64,000 nt of DNA, taken from a virus. The stretch lies in the IMG/VR virus record IMGVR_UViG_3300044825_001821, positions 1 through 64,000 of that record; one strand, 5' to 3'. The notes below the pieces were generated by a model. The model searched no databases. It had not been told where the DNA came from and was given only the letters and a program-made list of their open reading frames with translations. Below are positions 29,638 to 62,143 of this stretch, piece by piece. The translations under genes and the position numbers were made by a program. Numbering within the stretch: the stretch's first letter is position 1; each line of letters opens with the position of its first letter.

Positions 29638-31802
29638 GGTTATTGTTTTCTTGATAGGAGTGTAAAATGAGTGCCCCAGGTCTTACTGAAGAAGAAATTA
29701 ACATTTTAGCAAAAGAAATTGCTGATGCTACCTTGACCGATTATGTCGATGATGAGTGTGAGGCAATGTTTGATGCATTGTATGCTGAACACGAGGCAAT
29801 GATGTATGCTGCCAATTCATATGACCTTGATGCAATTGCATATGGTGAGATGTAATGAAGTTATGTAAGGACTGCAAATACTTTACCGAAGCCTCTAATA
29901 AAGAGGCTTTTTGTTTACACTCAGAATCGGTAATGTATGATGATCCAATATATGGTGAACATTCACGAAGAACTTGTCGTGATATGCGATTGGGCGGACC
30001 TGACCGCACTGCACCGTGTGGTAGATACGGCAAGCTATTTGTTGCCGTTGCTGGATTCGTACCTCAAATTATAAGTGAGGAAATGAAATGAGACAATTTT
30101 TTACAAGCAAAGAAGAATATTTGGCAGTATTGAATGCCGAACGTGAGATACTACTACGATTTTATTATAAACCAGATGAGTCGGCTACAGGATATTACAA
30201 TACAGCCGCATCGGTTTTAGCAGAGCGCATCAAAGAATTAGAAGAACAAAAATGAGATATTGGACCATCTGTTATCCTGCGCCTCATCCTACACAAGATT
30301 TTGATATCTGTGTGTGGGAAACACTATCCGATCAAGAAATAATAGATTATTATTGGGACTGGTGGTCGGGTAAAATGTTGGCTGAAGGTCCCAATGATTC
30401 ATGCACATTTGAGAATTGTATCATTGATTGGTGCATTGTACATTGGGCGGAGCGTAATCATTGGCGTGAGATGAAGGAATATTATGAGTGATATTGAGAA
30501 TGATATTGCCGAACGTAAACGTGCAATATTTGATTTGATTGAACACAATGAAATGTTAGATGATGACGGCTATCCGACCGATGCTGCATTAGATGTCATT
30601 CGACTATGGCATTGGGATAATGCAAAAGGCTGGTTCAAGTTTATCGAAGGTCTTTGGCATTTTCATAGTTGGGGTTGGAGAGAAGATGACGAGGCACATG
30701 AATATCTAAAAGATGAAATTGTGCGGAGATATTACGTTTCGACCTGTGGTTGGTCTGGTAATGAATCAATCATTCGTGCTATGCAAGAAAATAAAAGTAT
30801 GATGTGGACACTGACCTGGGTACAATCACGCCGTGGTGGTCATTATATTTTTGAACTGAGGGAGATTCATCAATGAATGAAGATGATTTAGTGTACCGCC
30901 TACGCAAACGTGCTGAGATACGCCGTCAGATACCAGGACGCAAATCTGTGGAAGAGGGCAAGCCCGACCGTATTGCCGACTTGTTGGAAGAGGCGGCAAT
31001 TGAAATTGAACGGCTGCGTGAGCCAAAGAATAAATAATGATATGATTCGGCGATAAACCAATCCATATCAATCATGTCAGACCCAAAAGAAGAACTCAAA
31101 AAACACAGACCCAAAAAGAAAAAACTTGCAGTACCAGCCGAATTTCTACAAGAAGCAAAATCATATGATGACAAATTAGTTTTGGTGAAAACACTGACCG
31201 AAATGGAAAAAGGTCGTGTGCTGTTGATCATTCGTGGTATGCTGGCTGATGCTGTAAAAGCCAGAGACAAAAAATGAAACAACTGCTGGAGATATTACCG
31301 AAACTGTTGGGCATGATGCCCGAACTGGTCAAGTATATCAAATATATTCCCATTCTAATGATATTGGCAGGTGTAGGATATGGTGCATACTATGTGACAC
31401 AAAACTACAAAGACCCATACAAGTGTTATAATAATCAGTTATTCAAACAAAAATCTATCGATTCAAATGTTTATATTTTCGTTGGTGAGGTGTGCATAGA
31501 TGGCAATGAGAAACCTATTCCTGAAACTGAAAACTAGAACGGATTCCGTCATAGTTTTCATAGCATATATTTCCCTGTTCGTCGCATCGGCTACTGCCTA
31601 CACAATTATACGTGATAAGCGCCTGGCTGCCGAGGAATATTGTGAAAATCATCGTGGCATTCTATTCACCGACCGTGCTGGTGAGTATATTTGCATCAAA
31701 GAAAAATCCATAGTAAAATGACAATTGTTGCGATTGCACAATGTGCTATCATTTTGCTATGTATTGTCATTTTAGTAAGCTTCCCAGATATTTAAAAAAA
31801 CC

Positions 31803-31831
31803 TTGACAAGTAAACCGAAATGCCTCATAAT
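31803..31831 (+). promoter_or_regulatory. Sigma70-type early promoter
   Basis: TTGACAagtaaacc, 17-bp spacer, CATAATgg. Confidence 0.8.
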
Positions 31832-40277: not shown

Positions 40278-41477
40278 GGCAGTGTTGATTGATTTTATGG
40301 AGGTTTGTTATGGCTATAGTTGATGGACAAATTGTGAAAGTTGGTGATGCTGTTGGTTTCAAGTGTGATATTGAGCAGTGGGGCTATATCACTAAAATCA
40401 ATGGTGATATGTTGACACTAAAGGCACCGTATAATTCGGGTTTTGAAGGTGATTATATTGGTGGTAATGAGTATCATGTGGTCGATGCTTATTCCTGCTG
40501 GATTGACTAAAGGAGATTTGTTATGGCTTATGTATCTCAAGAACTGAAGTCTAAATTGGCGCCTACTATCAAAGCAATTTGCAAAAAGTATGGTGTAAAA
40601 GCCAGCCTTGCTGTACGCAATCATTCCACACTGGTGCTAAATGTAAAGTCTGGTAAAGTAGACTTTATCGGCGATTATGGTAGCACTCCTGAAACACGTG
40701 CTGATGCTGAAAAGTTCGGTATTCAAGTGAATCCTTATCACTACAAAAGCCACTTCAATGGTGATGCATATTTCTTTTTGTCGGAAGTGATTCCTGCAAT
40801 GAATGCTGGTAATTGGGATGAATCTGATGCACAAGTTGATTATTTCAATGTCGGCTGGTATATCGATGTAAATATTGGTAAGTGGAATAAACCCTACACT
40901 CTGGAGGCTTAATATGGATCAGATAGATAAAATTATGGCGTATGAATCTGGTGAACTAGATTTTGATGAAACTGTGGAATTTTTTCAAAAGTTGATTGAT
41001 TCGGGTCTTGTGTGGCAACTGCAAGGTTCGTATGGTCGTATGGCAAACTCATTAATTGAGAATGGTTATTGTAATGTACACTGAAGATAAAATTGTTGCA
41101 AATCGAATTCGTACCCCCGATGGTACGATTCTTGAATCTATGCACCGCCACGATTATGTAACCTATGTCGATAAGAATGGCAAAGAATACATGGTCGATG
41201 GCGGCCTTGATTACCTGCGCCGCAATGTACATGATGATGCACCGTATGAAGAACTCTCGGTGTATGCTGATGATCTTCATGTTGAAATTCGTGAGGTATT
41301 CAAGTGGGGTACACGTGGTAAAGATGGTAAGCAACCACTGAAATTTGTACCACTAAAAGACTTGACAACTGAACACATTGAGGCTATACTGGATACTCAA
41401 ACACATATTTCCGATCACATTCGAAAAATATTTTTGAATGAATTGGCAATTCGTGGATAAGTTGGATATATACTGAT

Positions 41478-41573
41478 ATGAACAATCTAATACACATTAC
41501 AAAGCAAGCGCCCGAATATCGCACATTTAGCGATAATGGCTCATGGGCACCTGTGTCGGAGGTTTGTGTATAG
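41478..41573 (+). CDS. Putative attenuator leader peptide MNNLIHITKQAPEYRTFSDNGSWAPVSEVCV
   Basis: 31 codons containing all 20 amino acids; its 3' end is complementary to the 5' arm of the downstream terminator. Confidence 0.6.
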   Translation: MNNLIHITKQAPEYRTFSDNGSWAPVSEVCV

Positions 41574-41599
41574 ATTGTAATCGTTAGCAGATATACAAC

Positions 41600-41639
41600 A
41601 AACCCCGAAGCCCAAAAAGTTTCGGGGTTTTGTTTTTTT
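41600..41639 (+). terminator. Intrinsic terminator of the putative attenuator
   Basis: AAACCCCGAAGC / GTTTCGGGGTTT followed by TGTTTTTTT. Confidence 0.85.
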
Positions 41640-41665
41640 GATAACGAAAAAAGTTTAAAAAAACC

Positions 41666-41694
41666 TTGACAAGTAAATGGCTGTTCTATACAAT
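41666..41694 (+). promoter_or_regulatory. Sigma70-type promoter upstream of the tRNA array
   Basis: TTGACA-17-TACAATgg. Confidence 0.8.
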
Positions 41695-41827
41695 GGTCGA
41701 TGTTGAGTGAGTGAGAAAGAAAAAACGGAAGTGAGCGATCCGACTCTGAGAAGAGTTTAGCAAGGGTTGATGCGGTAGGGCAGCTTCGGCATCTGTAATA
41801 GCGATTCCTTGTTAGTTCTTGAATTAT

Positions 41828-41903
41828 GCACCCATCGTCTAGAGGCCTAGGACCCTGCCCTTTCACGGCAGTAACACCGGTTCAAATCCGGTTGGGTGTA
41901 CCA
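41828..41903 (+). tRNA. tRNA-Glu(TTC)
   Basis: CTGCC-CTTTCAC-GGCAG, CCA. Confidence 0.93.
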
Positions 41904-41954
41904 AGTTCTTAATAGGAGACCTGTCATGGATAGTGACAAGAGTGGTAAGATGAA

Positions 41955-42030
41955 GGGAGTATAGTCAAACGGTTAAGACAGCGGACTTTTAATCCGTCAG
42001 GTCAGGGTTCGAATCCCTGTGCTCCCACCA
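41955..42030 (+). tRNA. tRNA-Lys(TTT)
   Basis: GCGGA-CTTTTAA-TCCGT, CCA. Confidence 0.93.
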
Positions 42031-42064
42031 TATAAAAGTATTTTGATTCAGAGTATTTTTATAT

Positions 42065-42142
42065 GGCACTTTAGCATAGTTGGCCTAATGCGCTGCCCTG
42101 TCACGGCAGAGATCACGGGTTCGAATCCCGTAAGTGTCGCCA
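42065..42142 (+). tRNA. tRNA-Asp(GTC)
   Basis: CTGCC-CTGTCAC-GGCAG, CCA. Confidence 0.93.
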
Positions 42143-42149
42143 GAATTAT

Positions 42150-42224
42150 TGCCAAGTAGCACAGTGGTAGTGCAGTTGACTGTTAATCAATTGGTCGTTG
42201 GTTCGATCCCAACCTTGGCAGCCA
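42150..42224 (+). tRNA. tRNA-Asn(GTT)
   Basis: GTTGA-CTGTTAA-TCAAT, CCA. Confidence 0.93.
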
Positions 42225-42225
42225 G

Positions 42226-42463
42226 TATCCCGCTTACCGTTAAGTGTCAAGTAACGGCGATCCTAATGTCGAAAATGATTAGGCGTATTGTGAGCGTCAA
42301 TCACACGGCAGAACAGAAAATCATATGATAATGCCGCAGAGTCCCGCTTACATGGGAGCCTTATGAAAATACTGTTCCGGTAGCAAGCCAGGCCACCGAT
42401 ATAATAAATTGGACGGACAGAGTAACTGCTCAGTCTAGGGCTTATGGGAGTAAGTAGCTAGAC
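42226..42463 (+). ncRNA. Candidate structured ncRNA within the tRNA array
   Basis: Non-coding; multiple hairpins (CCGTTA/TAACGG, CCTAAT/ATTAGG, TGTGA/TCACA, CGGCA/TGCCG, GTCTAG/CTAGAC). Confidence 0.55.
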
Positions 42464-42587
42464 ACCTTAATTGTGTTATCTGTAAGCCATGGGCTTGATC
42501 ATGCCTGAGTAACTATGTACACAGACGGTAAATCCGGCCGGCTATTCCGTTGAGCATAGCAAATAGTGCAGATAACACAATTAAGGT
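42464..42587 (+). ncRNA. Candidate small RNA closed by a perfect 19-bp terminal stem
   Basis: ACCTTAATTGTGTTATCTG / CAGATAACACAATTAAGGT. Confidence 0.6.
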
Positions 42588-42593
42588 AACTGT

Positions 42594-42667
42594 TGGGGAT
42601 TAGTGAAATGGTATCACACCGGATTTTGATTCCGAGGTCGTAAGTTCGATTCTTACATCCCCTGCCA
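42594..42667 (+). tRNA. tRNA-Gln(TTG)
   Basis: Anticodon loop TTTTGAT, CCA. Confidence 0.9.
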
Positions 42668-42674
42668 AATTATT

Positions 42675-42758
42675 GGGTGACGAGCAGCACTGGTGACTGC
42701 ACCTGACTGTAAATCAGACGCTTCGGCATACTTGGTTCGACTCCGAGGTCACCCACCA
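42675..42758 (+). tRNA. tRNA-Tyr(GTA)
   Basis: CTGTAAA loop, variable arm, CCA. Confidence 0.92.
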
Positions 42759-42761
42759 GTA

Positions 42762-42930
42762 AACTTGAGTTGTGGCAAGTATAGTCCACAAACAGGAGTG
42801 TAACCTGATTCATACAAAGATAAGTATGAAACGTGAATGAGCCATCTTTTGACCGTGTTCTTTAGGCAGGAAACACATAAGAAAACGGCAGGCGTTAAAC
42901 GTGATTACAATCGCCTAGGTAATCAAAGTA
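42762..42930 (+). ncRNA. Candidate multi-stem ncRNA
   Basis: Hairpins TGTGG/CCACA, CAGG/CCTG, TTCATAC/GTATGAA, CCGTGTTCTT/AAGAAAACGG, AGGCG/CGCCT. Confidence 0.5.
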
Positions 42931-42932
42931 TT

Positions 42933-43007
42933 CGGTCTTTAGTAAAATGGATATTACGGCGGGCTACGGACCCGCAGGTGGGAGTTCGATTCTCTCAGGA
43001 CCGGCCA
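42933..43007 (+). tRNA. tRNA-Arg(ACG)
   Basis: GCGGG-CTACGGA-CCCGC, CCA. Confidence 0.92.
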
Positions 43008-43101
43008 TATTGAAACACATTGAATCCCAAGGGTACGAGGGGTGGCTGTAGGCCTATATTCCGGTCGATGGGTTCGATTCCCGCAGTGTGTTTCAATATG
43101 G
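43005..43101 (+). ncRNA. Long-stem RNA containing a tRNA-like T arm
   Basis: CCATATTGAAACACATT / AGTGTGTTTCAATATGG enclosing GGG-TTCGATT-CCC. Confidence 0.55.
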
Positions 43102-43175
43102 GGGATTGGTGCTAATTGGGAACACATGTGCTTTGCAAGCATGAGTAAGCAGTTCGAATCTGCTATCCTCCACCA
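43100..43175 (+). tRNA. tRNA-Ala(TGC)
   Basis: G3:U70 pair, TTTGCAA loop, CCA. Confidence 0.92.
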
Positions 43176-43185
43176 AAGTTTTATT

Positions 43186-43261
43186 GCCGGTTTAGCTCAT
43201 CTGGTAGAGCAGGCGCCTTGTAAGCGTCAGGTGGTGGGTTCGAGTCCTGCAACCGGCACCA
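43186..43261 (+). tRNA. tRNA-Thr(TGT)
   Basis: CTTGTAA loop, CCA. Confidence 0.94.
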
Positions 43262-43269
43262 AGTTTTAT

Positions 43270-43347
43270 CTGAGTGTAATGTCAGCCCGGTAGACGGCCT
43301 GGTTTGGAACTAGGAGGCCGTAGGTTCAAATCCTACCACTCAGACCA
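43270..43347 (+). tRNA. tRNA-Pro(TGG)
   Basis: TTTGGAA loop, CCA. Confidence 0.92.
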
Positions 43348-43349
43348 AT

Positions 43350-43425
43350 TGCGGGTTAGGGAAGAGGTCATCCCGTCAGGTTCATATTCTGAAGATCGTT
43401 GGTTCGAATCCAGCACCCGCTACCA
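43350..43425 (+). tRNA. tRNA-Met(CAT), probably initiator
   Basis: TTCATAT loop; 1:72 mismatch. Confidence 0.85.
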
Positions 43426-43439
43426 ATTATAGGTGACTT

Positions 43440-43910
43440 ATGTTTAAAAAAGAAATTGACTTAAATGAAGTGGCTGCGTTTCTTGATAAATGTGGTCCCG
43501 ATACGAAAGTTTATATTGGTGCGGACAGTGAACGTTTTCAAATCAATGGCGACTGGTTTGCTGATTACATTCTAGCAGTTGTAATTCACATTGATGGTCG
43601 TCACGGCTGTAAGATATTCGGTGCCGTACAACGTGAACGTGATTTTGAACAAAAGAAAAATCGTCCACGTTTTCGTTTGATGAATGAGGTATATAAAGTT
43701 TCAGAATTGTATTTGAAATTGTATGAAGTTATACCACATGACATACAAATTCATCTGGATATCAATCCAAGTGAAATGCATGGCAGTTCATGTGTAGTAA
43801 ACGAAGCGATTGGTTATATCAAAGGTACATGTAATGTTGTACCACTGATCAAACCAAAAGCATTTGCAGCATCATATGCGGCTGATCGTTTCAAAAGTTT
43901 AGCAGCATAA
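43440..43910 (+). CDS. RNase H-like YkuK/DUF458 family protein inside the tRNA array
   Basis: YIGADS, RLMNEV, IHLDIN, AASYAAD. Confidence 0.8.
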   Translation: MFKKEIDLNEVAAFLDKCGPDTKVYIGADSERFQINGDWFADYILAVVIHIDGRHGCKIFGAVQRERDFEQKKNRPRFRLMNEVYKVSELYLKLYEVIPHDIQIHLDINPSEMHGSSCVVNEAIGYIKGTCNVVPLIKPKAFAASYAADRFKSLAA

Positions 43911-43919
43911 AAAAGTAAT

Positions 43920-43994
43920 GCGGGTATAGCACAGTGGTAGTGCGACACGTTGCCAACGTGTAGGTCATCAGTTCGAATCTGATTATCCGCTCCA
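43920..43994 (+). tRNA. tRNA-Gly(GCC)
   Basis: TTGCCAA loop, U73, CCA. Confidence 0.92.
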
Positions 43995-43999
43995 GGTAT

Positions 44000-44073
44000 T
44001 TCGGTGTGGCGTAATGGCAGCGCAGGAGTCTCCAAAACTCTTAGTGGGGGTTCGATTCCCTCCACCGAAGCCA
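44000..44073 (+). tRNA. tRNA-Trp(CCA)
   Basis: CTCCAAA loop, CCA. Confidence 0.92.
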
Positions 44074-44076
44074 AAT

Positions 44077-44171
44077 GGTAGACAGCACTGGTGTGCGGCG
44101 GAGACTTATAAACTCTGGAGAGTGGCTAGATGGGCTGCAACGGCTAGGTTCGAATCCTAGGTCTACTACCA
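44077..44171 (+). tRNA. Non-canonical tRNA-Ile(TAT) with long variable arm
   Basis: GGTAGAC/GTCTACT acceptor, GCAC-TGGT-GTGC D arm, CTTATAA loop, canonical T arm, CCA. Confidence 0.7.
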
Positions 44172-44183
44172 GTGTTTTTTGGT

Positions 44184-44257
44184 GTGGCCATAGTGTAACG
44201 GTAGCACTAGACATTGTGACTGTCTCAGTTCGGATTCAAATTCCGATGGTCACCCCA
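44184..44257 (+). tRNA. tRNA-His(GTG)
   Basis: AGACA-TTGTGAC-TGTCT, C73, CCA. Confidence 0.9.
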
Positions 44258-44266
44258 AAAAATATT

Positions 44267-44342
44267 GGTGCTTTAGCTGATGTGGTCATAGCAGTGGCCT
44301 GAAGAGCCTCGGAAGTTAGTTCGATTCTAACAGGCACCACCA
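44267..44342 (+). tRNA. tRNA-Phe(GAA)
   Basis: CTGAAGA loop, CCA. Confidence 0.9.
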
Positions 44343-44343
44343 T

Positions 44344-44417
44344 TGTCCTGTAGTTAAATGGTATAACTGTCGATTGATAATCGACCATTACAAGTTCAAT
44401 TCTTGTCGGGACAACCA
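44344..44417 (+). tRNA. tRNA-Ile(GAT)
   Basis: GTCGA-TTGATAA-TCGAC, CCA. Confidence 0.92.
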
Positions 44418-44422
44418 GAATT

Positions 44423-44497
44423 GGTAGTGTAGCATAATGGTAGTGCGCCACCTTCATACGGTGTTAGGTGTAAGTTCGAATCTTACCACTACTACCA
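44423..44497 (+). tRNA. tRNA-Met(CAT), elongator (or Ile2)
   Basis: TTCATAC loop, CCA. Confidence 0.85.
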
Positions 44498-44498
44498 A

Positions 44499-44574
44499 GC
44501 GCCGGTGACGGAACGGTATACGTGTTGGTCTTAGAAACCAAATTCTGAGAGTTCGAATCTCTCCTGGCGCACCA
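44499..44574 (+). tRNA. tRNA-Leu(TAG), short variable arm
   Basis: TTGGT-CTTAGAA-ACCAA, CCA. Confidence 0.9.
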
Positions 44575-44580
44575 GTATTT

Positions 44581-44654
44581 GCCTTGTTAGTTTAATGGTA
44601 GAACTCTGTCTTTACACGGCAGTTACGGTGGTTCGATTCCATCACAAGGCACCA
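44581..44654 (+). tRNA. tRNA-Val(TAC)
   Basis: TTTACAC loop, CCA. Confidence 0.92.
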
Positions 44655-44661
44655 GTATCAT

Positions 44662-44739
44662 GCAACGGTGGCAGAGTGGTCCAATGCAAGAGTCTGCAAA
44701 ACTCTAAAGCCGTCGGTTCAAATCCGACCCGTTGCTCCA
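44662..44739 (+). tRNA. tRNA-Cys(GCA)
   Basis: AGAGT-CTGCAAA-ACTCT, U73, CCA. Confidence 0.92.
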
Positions 44740-44744
44740 AATAT

Positions 44745-44834
44745 GGAAGTGTGGCAGAGTCCGGTTTATTGCACCTGTCTTGAAAACAGACGTATCGAAA
44801 GGTACCGTGAGTTCGAATCTCACCGCTTCCGCCA
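44745..44834 (+). tRNA. tRNA-Ser(TGA)
   Basis: CTTGAAA loop, long variable arm, G73, CCA. Confidence 0.92.
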
Positions 44835-44952
44835 AATAGGAGAAAAAATGTTGATACTTACAACAATGCTGACGATGATATTTTATTGGGTATTGTTTGG
44901 TTTATCTGTAACGGCATTTTTATTCGTGATGTATGGTATCGCAATAGTATCT

Positions 44953-45044
44953 GGAGTGTTGGCCGAGTTGGTCGAAGGCACTTTCCTGCTAAGAAAGCAT
45001 ACCCCATAAGGGTATCATTGGTTCGAATCCAATACACTCCGCCA
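44953..45044 (+). tRNA. tRNA-Ser(GCT)
   Basis: CTGCTAA loop, long variable arm, CCA. Confidence 0.92.
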
Positions 45045-45045
45045 C

Positions 45046-45074
45046 TTGACAACGTTTTTTCATTGATATATAAT
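45046..45074 (+). promoter_or_regulatory. Sigma70-type promoter immediately after the array
   Basis: TTGACA-17-TATAAT. Confidence 0.8.
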
Positions 45075-45680
45075 GTTTACTGTCGCATGGAGAAAGAAAT
45101 GAAAGGTAAAACTTTGAAAAAACTGTCCAAACCACGGAATTTTGTGGCAAAAGACTTATTCACACCGAAATATCGAATAAGAGTTGAGCACTCATCTGTA
45201 AATTTTTACAATCGTGCTTCCGAAAAACAAAATTTCCGAAAACAAAATGTCTATTTTTAGAAAAAAAGTTGAAGAACCCGTCGATCCACCCGTTTCAGGT
45301 AATGAAATGGATGATTTTGACGGTTTTTATTTTGTTCCTGATGATGATGACTTTGAAAATAACTATAAAATGATATTTTTCAACATGAAAGATGAATATT
45401 CCAACTCAAAACCAGTTGAGAGTTCACACATGGGGCTAAAATATCACTTGTGTTTTTTCAAAACCGATGAAAATGGCGCTCCTGTGTTTGATGATGCGTT
45501 TGAAGCCATACTTGTTGACCCTTTAACGTATGTGAAGAGCATGACAGGCTCAGGAATTGGTGGTTGTGTCTTGAAAAAGACAGAAAAATCGGATGGATGG
45601 TGGACTGATTACTTGAATTTCATCACCGGTGGCGAATTTAAGCAAAAAGTAAGAGAGGCATTCGGTTCTATCGCAAACAA

Positions 45681-46004
45681 TTGATCATGAAAGTGAGGAT
45701 TGATAAATTTATGGAAAAAATATTCGACCCAAGTTACAAAGATTACAAAACAAGCCGTAAATGGCTGATTGGTTTGCTCGAAAGTGAGATTGTAGAAATT
45801 ACTTTCTTAAAAAAAGACGGAACTGAACGTATAATGAATTGTACGTTACAAGAAGATTACTTACCAGAAACAGTTGGCTCTGATAAAGATAAAAATAGTG
45901 ATGCACTTGCGGTTTTTGATGTAGACAAAGAAGATTGGCGCTCATTTCGTTGGGATTCAGTAAAACGAATTTCATTTTCTATTGGTGGAGAACATAATGC
46001 CTAA
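45681..46004 (+). CDS. WYL-like/SH3-fold phage protein
   Basis: ITFLKKDGTERIMNCT...VFDVDKEDWRSFR. Confidence 0.65.
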   Translation: MIMKVRIDKFMEKIFDPSYKDYKTSRKWLIGLLESEIVEITFLKKDGTERIMNCTLQEDYLPETVGSDKDKNSDALAVFDVDKEDWRSFRWDSVKRISFSIGGEHNA

Positions 46005-46293
46005 GTATATCGTAGAACAAATTTCTGTACACCGCAGTGTATTTGTGGTCGAAGCGGATAACCAAGAAGATGCTAAAAAAGTTGCGGCAGTTGCCGATGA
46101 CAATTGGCAACAATGGCTTGGTCAACTTGATGTTGATGTGAATGAGTATTCTGAAGAAAGAATTGCTTATTTCAAACACAAAGATTATTTCTGGGATGGT
46201 GTTTCATACAAAGACAGTGATGGATACCTTGCATATCATCACCCATCAGGTGAAGATATAGAACGTAAGGAAATTGTCATTCGTTAATCAAAT

Positions 46294-46371
46294 GCGGACG
46301 TAGTGTTCAACGGTTAGCACGTGAGCCTTCCAAGCTTGAAGTGAGGAGTTCGAATCTCCCCGTCCGCTCCA
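46294..46371 (+). tRNA. tRNA-Gly(TCC)
   Basis: CTTCCAA loop, U73, CCA. Confidence 0.92.
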
Positions 46372-46614
46372 AAGGATTATTATGAAATCTTGGACTTTAG
46401 AAGTTAAACAACACGAAGATGGTGATTACATACTAGAATTCAATGATGAAATTCTGGCCGAAACTGGTTGGAAAGAGGGTGACACATTAAAGTGGCTTGA
46501 TAACGGCGATGGTACATGGTCGCTGAAAAAATTAGATGAGAATCATGAAAATACTGATCAATCTAAGACGTAGTTTTTTTTAAATATAACTGTTGTTATT
46601 CTATAGGAGATGTT

Positions 46615-47058
46615 ATGAACTTGAAAGGATCAAGAACCGCCGAAAGCCTTAAAGAAGCTTTTGCAGGTGAATCAATGGCAAACCGCCGCTATCTGTATTT
46701 CGCAAATCAATGTGATATTGCAGGTGAAAACGATCTTGCTGCATTGTTCCGTTCCACAGCAGAAGGTGAAACAGGACACGCACATGGTCACATGGAGTAT
46801 TTGATCAACTTAGGCGCAGGAGACCCAGGAACAGATCAACCAGCAAGAACAGTTAAAGAAATGTTGGAATCTGCAATTCATGGTGAAACTCATGAGTACA
46901 CTGACATGTATCCTGGTATGGCTAGAATAGCACGTGATGAGGGTTTTGAAGAAATTGCTGATTGGTTTGAAACTCTAGCCAAAGCAGAACGTTCTCATGC
47001 TAACCGCTACAAAAAAGCCCTTGATACCTTTTACCCCGAAATTTTAGATAAAATTTAA
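46615..47058 (+). CDS. Rubrerythrin (ferritin-like; no rubredoxin domain)
   Basis: [37 protein letters not shown]. Confidence 0.92.
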
Positions 47059-60956: not shown

Positions 60957-61115
60957 TGATGCAAATTAGTGAAACAGAATATGATCAAAAACTTGAACAG
61001 TATTTGAAAGAGCAAGGACCAAATCCCGGTACCACATTTTTTGGTGCTTGGGGTTGGTATGCATCAAAGAAGAATCAGTTTGAGAAACAAATGCAGCAGG
61101 AAGGAATTGTTGTAA

Positions 61116-61413
61116 TCCCTTCAAAGTGAAGGCATTCTGGACGGCGGTTCGATTCCGCCCATCTCCACCAAAAGCATCTTGATGGCTATAAGGTTGTAGA
61201 TTTGATCACCTACAATACGCTGTGTGATGGGTGCTTTTGATGGGGATGATCTGGTTTCGACAGGGTGAGATAGTGGAGAAGGCAACACGAAAGGCGACGG
61301 ACGTAATCCGAGCAAAATAAGTAATCGCAAATGACGACTACTACGCTCTAGCAGCCTAAAAATTGTTAGATGGGGTTTAAGTGGGTTGTACCTTATTACC
61401 AAAACAGCCCACA
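61116..61413 (+). ncRNA. ssrA: Circularly permuted (two-piece) tmRNA, tag ANDDYYALAA; outer ends approximate
   Basis: T arm + CATCTCC-ACCA ends at 61170; GGGGATG starts at 61242 (G3:U70); tag frame 61327-61359. Confidence 0.9.
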
Positions 61414-61432
61414 TCAAATTCAGAGATATATC

Positions 61433-62143
61433 ATGCGTGTACATATTGGTCCTTATACAAACTGGTTTGGTCCTTATCAATTAGCAGAACTGCTTTGCTT
61501 TTGGGTAAAAAAAGTTCCTGATGAGCATGGCTTCAAACGACATCCAGATTGGGTTCATGATTTTGGTACTTGGCTGTCTGAAGATAAAAATGGCAAATCA
61601 TCTTGGCTAACTAAGTTTTGTTGGTGGGTTGATGGTCACAAGAAACGCAAAATCAAAGTACACATTGACAAGTACGATACATGGTCAATGGATCACACAT
61701 TGGCTCACATTATTTTGCCGATGTTGAAACAACTGCGTGATACCAAACATGGTTCACCACTAGTCGAACTTGAAGATTTGCCAGAAGAACTATGCATGAC
61801 GGGATATGATGACGGTTCATCACAATTCAGATTGAAGTTTGAAGATGATGAACAATATGAAAAAGAATCTTGGGATATTACACATCGTCGTTGGGAATGG
61901 GTATTGAATGAAATGATTTTTGCGTTCGAACATCTGCTTGATGATTCGTGGGAAGAAGCATATCGTTCTGGTCACATTGATATGCAGTTTGTGCCATGTG
62001 AAGATAACCCGAAACTATCACACATGGTAGATGGACCCAATCACACATACCAATGTGATTATGATGGTATGAATAAAGTATATGATCGCATGGATAACGG
62101 TTTTCGTTTGTTTGGAAAATATTACAGAGGACTTTGGGACTAA
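61433..62143 (+). CDS. Conserved phage hypothetical protein
   Basis: DTWSMDHTLA.IILPMLKQL, GFRLFGKYY..LWD. Confidence 0.65.
   Translation: MRVHIGPYTNWFGPYQLAELLCFWVKKVPDEHGFKRHPDWVHDFGTWLSEDKNGKSSWLTKFCWWVDGHKKRKIKVHIDKYDTWSMDHTLAHIILPMLKQLRDTKHGSPLVELEDLPEELCMTGYDDGSSQFRLKFEDDEQYEKESWDITHRRWEWVLNEMIFAFEHLLDDSWEEAYRSGHIDMQFVPCEDNPKLSHMVDGPNHTYQCDYDGMNKVYDRMDNGFRLFGKYYRGLWD

Follow-up and report, generated by a model that had tools for sequence, protein, structure and literature searches.

The leader and its terminator

The DNA considered here, referred to as the window, is a stretch of 64,000 nucleotides (positions 1 to 64,000) of the IMG/VR virus record IMGVR_UViG_3300044825_001821, a complete virus genome of 172,439 bp with terminal repeats which originates from freshwater metagenomes (lake water). 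Within it, an operon of small genes is closed by a short open reading frame (ORF), which is followed by an intrinsic terminator and an array of transfer RNA (tRNA) genes (Table 1). The original prediction, made from the letters alone, interpreted this ORF as the leader of a transcription attenuator by which the loss of almost any tRNA would be sensed and answered with read-through into the array. Leader-peptide attenuation is a textbook mechanism, known for operons making or charging one or a few amino acids.

Table 1. Positions of the leader, its RNA arms, the promoters and the tRNA genes in the window
Feature	Position	Strand	Description	Basis
Near-consensus promoter	41362-41390	+	TTGACA-17-TATACT; lies within the upstream gene, some 116 nt ahead of the leader ATG	promoter scan
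Candidate leader promoter	41443-41472	+	TTGGCA (41443-41448)-18-TATATA (41467-41472), 5 nt to the ATG	read from sequence
Leader ORF	41478-41573	+	31 codons from ATG to TAG, all 20 amino acids; stop TAG at 41571-41573	
Region 1	41482-41496	+	codons 2-7; pairs with region 2 in the full-length RNA	minimum free energy (MFE) fold
Central hairpin	41517-41535	+	TATCGC-ACATTTA-GCGATA, 6 bp, codons 14-20	folds
Region 2 (antiterminator 5' arm)	41556-41573	+	last five codons and stop codon	
Region 3 (antiterminator 3' arm)	41592-41611	+	also the terminator 5' arm	duplex calculations
Intrinsic terminator	41600-41639	+	12-bp stem (41600-41630), 7-nt loop, T-run to 41639	
Second promoter	41666-41694	+	TTGACA-17-TACAAT; between terminator and tRNA array	promoter scan
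tRNA array	41828-45044	+	22 tRNAs, all 20 amino acids covered	ARAGORN
tRNA-Gly(tcc)	46294-46371	+	follows the array	

The composition of the leader was described correctly in the original prediction, with all 20 amino acids and 29 different codons among the 31 of the ORF at 41478-41573, and with 18 amino-acid types already in residues 1-23. The comparison with chance which had been proposed there revealed such a content to be rare. Across the six frames of the 172-kb genome, 8 of 95,813 stop-free stretches of 31 residues, lying at 3 places, contain the full set, and the leader is the only such case among 1,133 ORFs of 25-40 amino acids (1/1,133). The codons show neither a tandem run nor any enrichment, and each amino acid is represented by about one codon.

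Downstream, the RNA can adopt alternative structures, denoted by the regions they join (region 4 being the segment with which region 3 forms the terminator). The proposed pairing of 41556-41572 with 41592-41608 was recovered as a helix of 16 bp with two bulges and an RNAduplex energy of -19.9 kcal/mol, which was equaled by 1 of 1000 shuffles. Likewise, antiterminator and terminator are mutually exclusive, as region 3 overlaps the terminator 5' arm. An Rfam scan of 40500-47000 returned tRNAs only, with no T-box match up to an E-value of 1. A match to the rnk leader (RF01772, Pseudomonas) at 41554-41639 was rejected, since it reached 29.5 bits versus a gathering score of 55 (E-value 0.059), and is probably due to the terminator-like hairpin.

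Relatives and amino-acid completeness

Close relatives were sought in viral and metagenome contigs with the upstream gene of 134 amino acids and a degenerate pattern for residues 14-23, which yielded 33 distinct copies, of which 31 were aligned (alignment A1). For distant relatives, patterns from regions 2, 3, and 4 only were applied to viral contigs, and one of them also to genomes, so as to avoid a bias from the peptide; unrelated matches were removed. In total, this amounted to 41 distinct leaders in phage contigs, belonging to about 16 very divergent lineages (labels such as L003 or L097 denote individual relative loci in phage or metagenome contigs). In every lineage with downstream sequence, tRNA genes follow at a distance of 8-260 nt, while the contig of L086 ends 44 nt past the stop codon. 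Short ORFs of high amino-acid diversity together with covarying helices were thus found to recur ahead of tRNA genes, which had been proposed as a check of the attenuator interpretation. Bacterial and archaeal genomes gave 61 pattern matches, 60 by chance and one true member, which lies on a 4.4-kb contig that is probably phage. No cultured relatives were detected among 50,697 phage records by megablast and blastn of the window region or by blastn of three divergent members, and the homologues of the upstream 134-amino-acid gene in cultured phages are not adjacent to tRNA genes. The tRNA region of phage T5 features many small ORFs, none of them a short full-alphabet leader with such an architecture.

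The reading frame itself is maintained throughout. ATG and stop codon occupy the same place in all close copies, and the ORF is open in 41/41 copies, while the other two frames contain 1-6 stops in nearly every lineage and offer 12-19 amino-acid types. Insertions and deletions within the ORF of close relatives measure only 3 nt and 6 nt, those in the spacer behind the stop codon 1-2 nt. Third codon positions vary most, e.g., ACA/ACG/ACC/ACT in codon 8 and GGC/GGT/GGA in codon 21, and paired silent changes from CTA to TTA and from TAG to TAA retain both Leu and the stop. The synonymous sites of codons 14-20 and 22 are nearly invariant in the close relatives, though the search pattern permitted any synonymous codon, so that a constraint on the RNA level also acts, namely on the central hairpin. 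Judged from its folding, this hairpin possibly serves as a pause hairpin for RNA polymerase.

Between lineages, the peptide has been replaced almost entirely, with a median identity of the variable leader parts of 0.38 vs. 0.31 for shuffled sequences (16 lineages). The distant leaders comprise 25-42 codons, and their stop codon is located within region 2 or up to 15 nt past it. In L100/L104/L107 and in L111, GGGGTTTGTG is read in another frame, resulting in ...GFV instead of ...GVC; region 2 is thus conserved as RNA and not as peptide. In all lineages, the terminator stem ends 48-57 nt past the stop codon, and a terminator is present in every lineage whose sequence extends to it.

Likewise, the antiterminator is a constant element of the family. 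The energy of the 2:3 duplex ranges from -15.5 to -24.7 kcal/mol across 31/31 close relatives, and among the divergent lineages amenable to folding, the nascent RNA has the 2:3 helix as its MFE structure in 15/15. If the RNA is cut just before region 4, the 2:3 pairing probability is at least 0.97 in 30/31 close copies, and the 1:2 helix is then absent. It follows from this dominance in the nascent RNA that read-through would be the default as long as no ribosome covers region 2. In the full RNA, the terminator state is more stable by only 0.3-16 kcal/mol in 30/31 close copies, and such a small gap in the calculated energies would correspond to the near-balance expected of a switch.

Covariation was found in each of these structures. 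In the 2:3 helix, alignment columns 98/127 pass from U-A via U.G to C-G, and columns 102/123 are also altered on both sides. Three pairs with changes on both sides occur in the 1:2 helix (columns 15/103, 16/102, and 21/98), one of them running from CTA/TAG via TTA/TAG to TTA/TAA and thus silent for Leu and stop alike, and three more in the terminator stem. RNAalifold selected another register for the 1:2 helix; the one retained is that backed by the changes on both sides. For the structure consisting of 1:2 helix, central hairpin, and terminator, 92.6% of the cells in alignment A1 are paired, with 6 pairs changed on both sides, compared with 28-48% paired in slid controls. Its covariation score of 0.099 (0.055 in shuffled alignments) was reached by 0/500 shuffles, and permuted partners matched the stability of the cognate arms in 12/5000 cases for the 1:2 helix and in 15/5000 for the 2:3 helix; these covariation and permutation figures are inflated by the relatedness of the sequences and are regarded as support, not as proof. 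Across the divergent lineages, the 1:2 helix surpasses shuffled sequences in 6/15 and is no better in 9/15.

In spite of the turnover of the peptide, the amino-acid set is largely retained. Among the 16 lineages, 20 types are found in eight leaders, 19 in six, 18 in one, and 13 in one. The number of complete leaders expected among 16 is 0.03 from the phage proteome, 0.29 from uniform frequencies, and 0.12 from the composition of the family itself, and the summed log10 P of completeness amounts to -34, -21, and -26, respectively. The part upstream of region 2 alone contains 18-20 types in 14/16 lineages. Cys, with 5.1% of the leader residues compared with 0.8% in the proteome, has a codon upstream of region 2 in 13/16 lineages. 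Alternative choices of the start codon hardly affect completeness. The comparison of lineages indicates that amino-acid completeness is under selection and has been held through a near-total turnover of the peptide.

Besides, exchanges between positions were observed. At columns 34/43 of A1 (41505 and 41514 of the window, the first bases of codons 10 and 13), 27/27 copies show either C..G or G..C, corresponding to a swap of Gln and Glu. Gln is present in all but one leader of the 31-codon family and shifts among positions 10, 12, and 13; Pro and Gln exchange places as well. These swaps would fit a selection for the amino-acid set, an RNA contact being the alternative.

Promoters and tRNA genes

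The promoter arrangement at the leader differs between the lineages. The near-consensus promoter inside the upstream gene of the window has its hexamers at the same place in 22/33 relatives. Given a TATATA located 5 nt before the ATG, the candidate promoter next to the leader would yield a leaderless messenger RNA (mRNA). The same geometry is seen with consensus hexamers in L081, L092, L103, L160, L111, and L107, where TTGACA-17-TATAAT/TATAGT/TAGAAT is followed by 6 nt and then the ATG. L099, L108, and L109 feature a 5' untranslated region (UTR) of 18-30 nt with AGGAAA suitably spaced from the start, while in the others the ATG lies 5-6 nt past the -10 box. As stated in the original prediction, no Shine-Dalgarno motif precedes the leader ATG of the window, compared with about half of the phage genes having one.

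The separate promoter starting at 41666, which had been named as a caveat, is indeed present between terminator and array; lineages having it are the WIN clade, L087, L090, L092, L099, and L109. At least nine lineages are devoid of it, and their first tRNA begins 8-51 nt past the T-run. In most relatives, this position is taken by tRNA-Pro(tgg), 8-12 nt past the T-run of the attenuator, with no promoter in between and a promoter behind it. In the window, tRNA-Pro is found inside the array (43270-43347), and the promoter takes its place right after the terminator. A 24-nt stretch at 41654-41677, which covers the start of this promoter, recurs identically about 10 kb upstream at 31791-31814 and presumably represents a second copy of the same promoter type. 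Moreover, a block of about 125 nt at 41700-41825, between the promoter and tRNA-Glu, is conserved in L003, L009, and L010. L004, L005, and L026 lack this block, which may encode a small structured RNA made on the same transcript as the array.

A boxA-like motif was additionally observed 60-360 nt past the leader stop, ahead of the first tRNA and behind the attenuator or the second promoter. Of the 13 positions of the E. coli rrn boxA (TGCTCTTTAACAA), L107 shares 13, L111 shares 12, and at least nine others share 11, an agreement rarely reached by shuffled sequences. Carriers are L107, L111, L081, L092, L094, L102, L103, L108, and L099 as well as the close relatives L010, L041, L047, L048, and L084; the motif was not found in the window or in L097. 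It suggests a Nus-factor antitermination of the untranslated tRNA transcript.

The array had been counted as 23 tRNAs, of which ARAGORN confirms 22; the remaining one is a non-canonical tRNA-like stretch at about 44076-44168 with a weak Rfam match. Sub-threshold matches resembling the selenocysteine tRNA (tRNA-Sec) occur there (44076-44168, 28.7 bits) and at 43014-43092 (22.1 bits), both in gaps of the array in which ARAGORN calls nothing. The stretch at 44076-44168 corresponds to the tRNA-Ile(TAT) of the original prediction, which was not among the ARAGORN calls. The match between leader codons and array anticodons exists, but at background level, with exact cognates for 14/30 codons vs. 47.6% in all phage genes, and with 27/30 decodable codons vs. 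84.8%. Similarly, TTA, AGA, and GGA, the codons of the three tRNAs placed outside the array by the original prediction, are absent from the leader of the window, but this absence is not conserved, as TTA occurs in 5/31, AGA in 2/31, and GGA in 10/31 close relatives. The phage further possesses a gene for a transfer-messenger RNA (61078-61450) with the tag peptide ANDDYYALAA according to ARAGORN.

A closer relation between leader and array was found in L097, where seven tRNAs (T, P, E, L, R, M, and C in one-letter code) are the only ones in a record of 42 kb. Its leader has 25 codons and 13 amino-acid types. Of the 20 residues before region 2, 16 belong to the seven amino acids of the array (binomial 1e-5), and the codons CCA (three times), TTA (three times), AGA, GAA, and ACA (twice) are exact cognates of its tRNAs. 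In this one member with a small array, leader content thus follows array content as far as the sequence tells. A general rule, by which an amino acid absent from the leader would have no tRNA in the array, was rejected, since it looked significant on partial loci and mostly collapsed with complete arrays. L067 (Leu), L084 (Gly-gcc), and L097 still fit, and L004, L006, L042, and L045 are counter-examples.

Two further observations concern single amino acids. In L084 (record G001), the only Gly codon of the leader has changed to Asn (SDNNSW), and the array of the same genome is without tRNA-Gly(gcc), its order being ATM-WH compared with ATMGWH. tRNA-Phe is missing from otherwise near-complete arrays (L081, L103, and L067 as well as the records of L084 and L107), and every leader of the family except L086 and L097 contains a Phe codon.

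Proposed mechanism and alternatives

Each structural step of the original interpretation, i.e., the ORF, the mutually exclusive helices, the 2:3 pairing in the nascent RNA, the completeness, and the tRNA context, is backed by comparative evidence. The element is therefore read, with a probability of roughly 70%, as a ribosome-mediated transcription attenuator which heads phage tRNA genes and would gauge the overall speed of decoding. Anatomy, conservation, covariation, and selected completeness form the basis of this reading, which further predicts that the ORF is translated, that ribosome and polymerase compete in a race, and in which direction and how strongly read-through would respond. A short mRNA, leaderless and starting at the AUG in many relatives, would carry the leader ORF. 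A ribosome finishing this ORF fast would cover region 2 while the polymerase makes regions 3 and 4, so that the terminator could form and transcription would stop. With a late or absent ribosome, regions 2 and 3 would pair, the terminator would be blocked, and the polymerase would continue into the tRNA genes. With each amino acid represented about once in the ORF, the ribosome would be delayed by slow decoding at nearly any codon, and through such a delay the element would report the overall supply of charged tRNA. Transcription of the tRNAs would become demand-driven in the sense of a negative feedback, and the phage would probably transcribe more tRNA when its codons, whichever they are, are read slowly by the ribosomes.

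A more far-reaching version is tentative and rather doubtful. According to it, the element would be a modular, evolvable closed-loop controller whose leader codons co-evolve with the gated tRNAs, a full alphabet preceding full arrays and seven amino acids preceding an array of seven tRNAs. Slow decoding of the matching codons, including that following the depletion of host tRNAs by a host anticodon nuclease or infection-induced tRNA decay, would trigger the replacement of tRNAs as a counter-defence. This defensive purpose is speculation.

Several observations weigh against an attenuator that surveys the whole amino-acid set. At calculated equilibrium, the terminator wins in most relatives regardless of the position of the ribosome, so that the proposed mechanism leans on kinetics; an equilibrium model of ribosome masking was judged to be wrong for the same reason, as it is non-kinetic. 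The covarying 1:2 helix of the window family, if it acts in a trp-like manner, would confine sensing to about codons 1-7. In the window, the leader is without a Shine-Dalgarno motif and its putative promoter is imperfect (TTGGCA-18-TATATA). There, as in several lineages, the strong promoter at 41666 appears to feed the array, so that read-through may add little in this phage. The leader codons of the window are not enriched for the anticodons of the phage itself. For most amino acids that a leader omits, a tRNA is nonetheless encoded in the full array, e.g., in L107 and L108, where the leaders are without His and tRNA-His is present, and tRNA-Phe is absent from many arrays whose leaders retain Phe. 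Finally, completeness is not obligatory, as leaders with 17-19 types also occur in the close family, in which Leu has disappeared repeatedly and K, E, A, P, or G in single lineages each.

Among the alternatives, a strict trp-type attenuator survives best but is unlikely for the family as a whole. In such a system, region 1 would act as an anti-antiterminator, only a stall on the first 7-10 codons would cause read-through, untranslated RNA would terminate, and all later codons would be irrelevant. The 1:2 helix of the window family supports it, having three pairs changed on both sides and exceeding its permuted partners. In the same direction, the terminator is lost in the equilibrium mask of the window if the ribosome footprint covers codons 1-7, but persists if it lies at codon 8 or later. 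Nevertheless, the 1:2 helix is no better than shuffled sequences in most of the divergent lineages (9/15). Before region 4 is made, 2:3 outcompetes 1:2 in nearly all close copies (probability of at least 0.97 in 30/31), and the free stretch of region 2 can start pairing. Moreover, such an attenuator offers no reason for the completeness or for the additional Cys that 13/16 lineages have upstream of region 2. A strict trp-like variant is possible for the family of the window itself.

Slightly less probable again is an attenuator which responds not to elongation and tRNA supply but to whether ribosomes are available or start on a leaderless mRNA (through initiation factors, free 70S ribosomes, or a phage takeover of translation), with the diversity of the leader as a by-product. 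The leaderless promoter geometry in at least six lineages agrees with this, and the default of antitermination without a ribosome would make the output depend on ribosome loading. Still, it explains neither a completeness persisting through near-total sequence turnover nor the leader of L097 being written in its own seven amino acids, and three lineages have an ordinary 5' UTR with a ribosome-binding site.

An untranslated cis-acting RNA, be it an attenuator binding a protein or ligand or a small RNA with its own terminator, would render the ORF incidental and is very improbable. The strong nucleotide conservation, which includes the synonymous sites of codons 14-20 and 22, would be in line with such an RNA, as would the lack of a Shine-Dalgarno motif in the window and the weak rnk-leader match below threshold (29.5 bits vs. 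a gathering score of 55). It is countered by a frame that is open in every copy (41/41) while stops close the other frames in almost all lineages, by insertions and deletions that stay in frame, and by the joint changes of CTA to TTA and TAG to TAA which preserve Leu and stop. Furthermore, lineages with a 5' UTR have a ribosome-binding site in it, and completeness is limited to the frame of the ORF. Scarcely credible, finally, is an ordinary gene for a small protein which happens to precede the usual terminator of the operon upstream, with complementarity and all-20 content as coincidences. In its favor, the ORF is the last of several small genes in an operon, the array of the window has a separate promoter, and it is not impossible for a genome with about 1,100 small ORFs to contain one all-20 case. 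Against it, the peptide is not conserved between lineages, some of which read its C-terminal end in another frame, whereas the RNA arms, their spacing, and the position before the tRNAs are conserved; completeness recurs from lineage to lineage, and at least nine lineages have no other promoter for the first tRNA.

The preferred reading, an attenuator responding to the overall speed of decoding, shares much with the enterobacterial attenuators (trpL, hisL, pheL, and leuL as well as the multivalent thrL and ilvL). Common to both are a short leader ORF (which is translated in enterobacteria), an intrinsic terminator, and an antiterminator excluding it. A ribosome at the end of the ORF favors termination and a lagging one read-through, which is predicted on the phage side; a mid-leader hairpin could be a pause site, and a 1:2 helix is found in the window family. 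In contrast, the phage leader has no tandem or enriched control codons but about one codon per amino acid, its stop codon lies inside region 2, and leaderless mRNAs are frequent. Since only part of the family has a 1:2 helix, the untranslated default is probably read-through. Moreover, the phage element precedes tRNA genes and not genes of biosynthetic enzymes.

The pheM leader of pheST in E. coli is a Phe-rich attenuator which controls a synthetase. It likewise matches a component of the decoding machinery to demand by leader-peptide attenuation, yet it senses one amino acid and regulates the synthetase, whereas the phage element is placed before tRNAs. T-box riboswitches also couple tRNA charging to the read-through of a terminator via an antiterminator, as predicted for the phage. 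In contrast to the phage element, which gave no T-box match in Rfam, a T-box contains no ORF, is recognizable by conserved specifier and T-box motifs, and works by direct binding of one particular uncharged tRNA. In the stalling leaders of resistance genes (ermK, vmlR, and bmrCD types), a slowed ribosome on a short ORF likewise remodels terminator and antiterminator, and a general translation defect is sensed and not the lack of one amino acid. The genes controlled there confer resistance, and the arrest is drug-dependent and tied to certain peptide or codon contexts, whereas the phage family has no conserved arrest motif and conserves completeness instead. No description of tRNA genes under leader-peptide control was found in a full-text literature search.

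For a finding made in silico, the comparative signal is unusually clean, with completeness retained despite turnover, an arm kept in a shifted frame, and a small array with a matching small alphabet. The reading leads to the prediction that the omission of any one amino acid or tRNA raises read-through, and the element would supply a small natural module for monitoring translation capacity. The regulation of phage tRNA arrays is a question which was reopened by recent work on phage tRNAs and on host defenses targeting tRNAs. In the element described here, the logic of attenuation apparently governs the tRNA genes themselves, with a leader sampling the whole amino-acid alphabet. If this is true, it would represent a sensor of global decoding capacity in one piece and would explain how large phages regulate their tRNA arrays.

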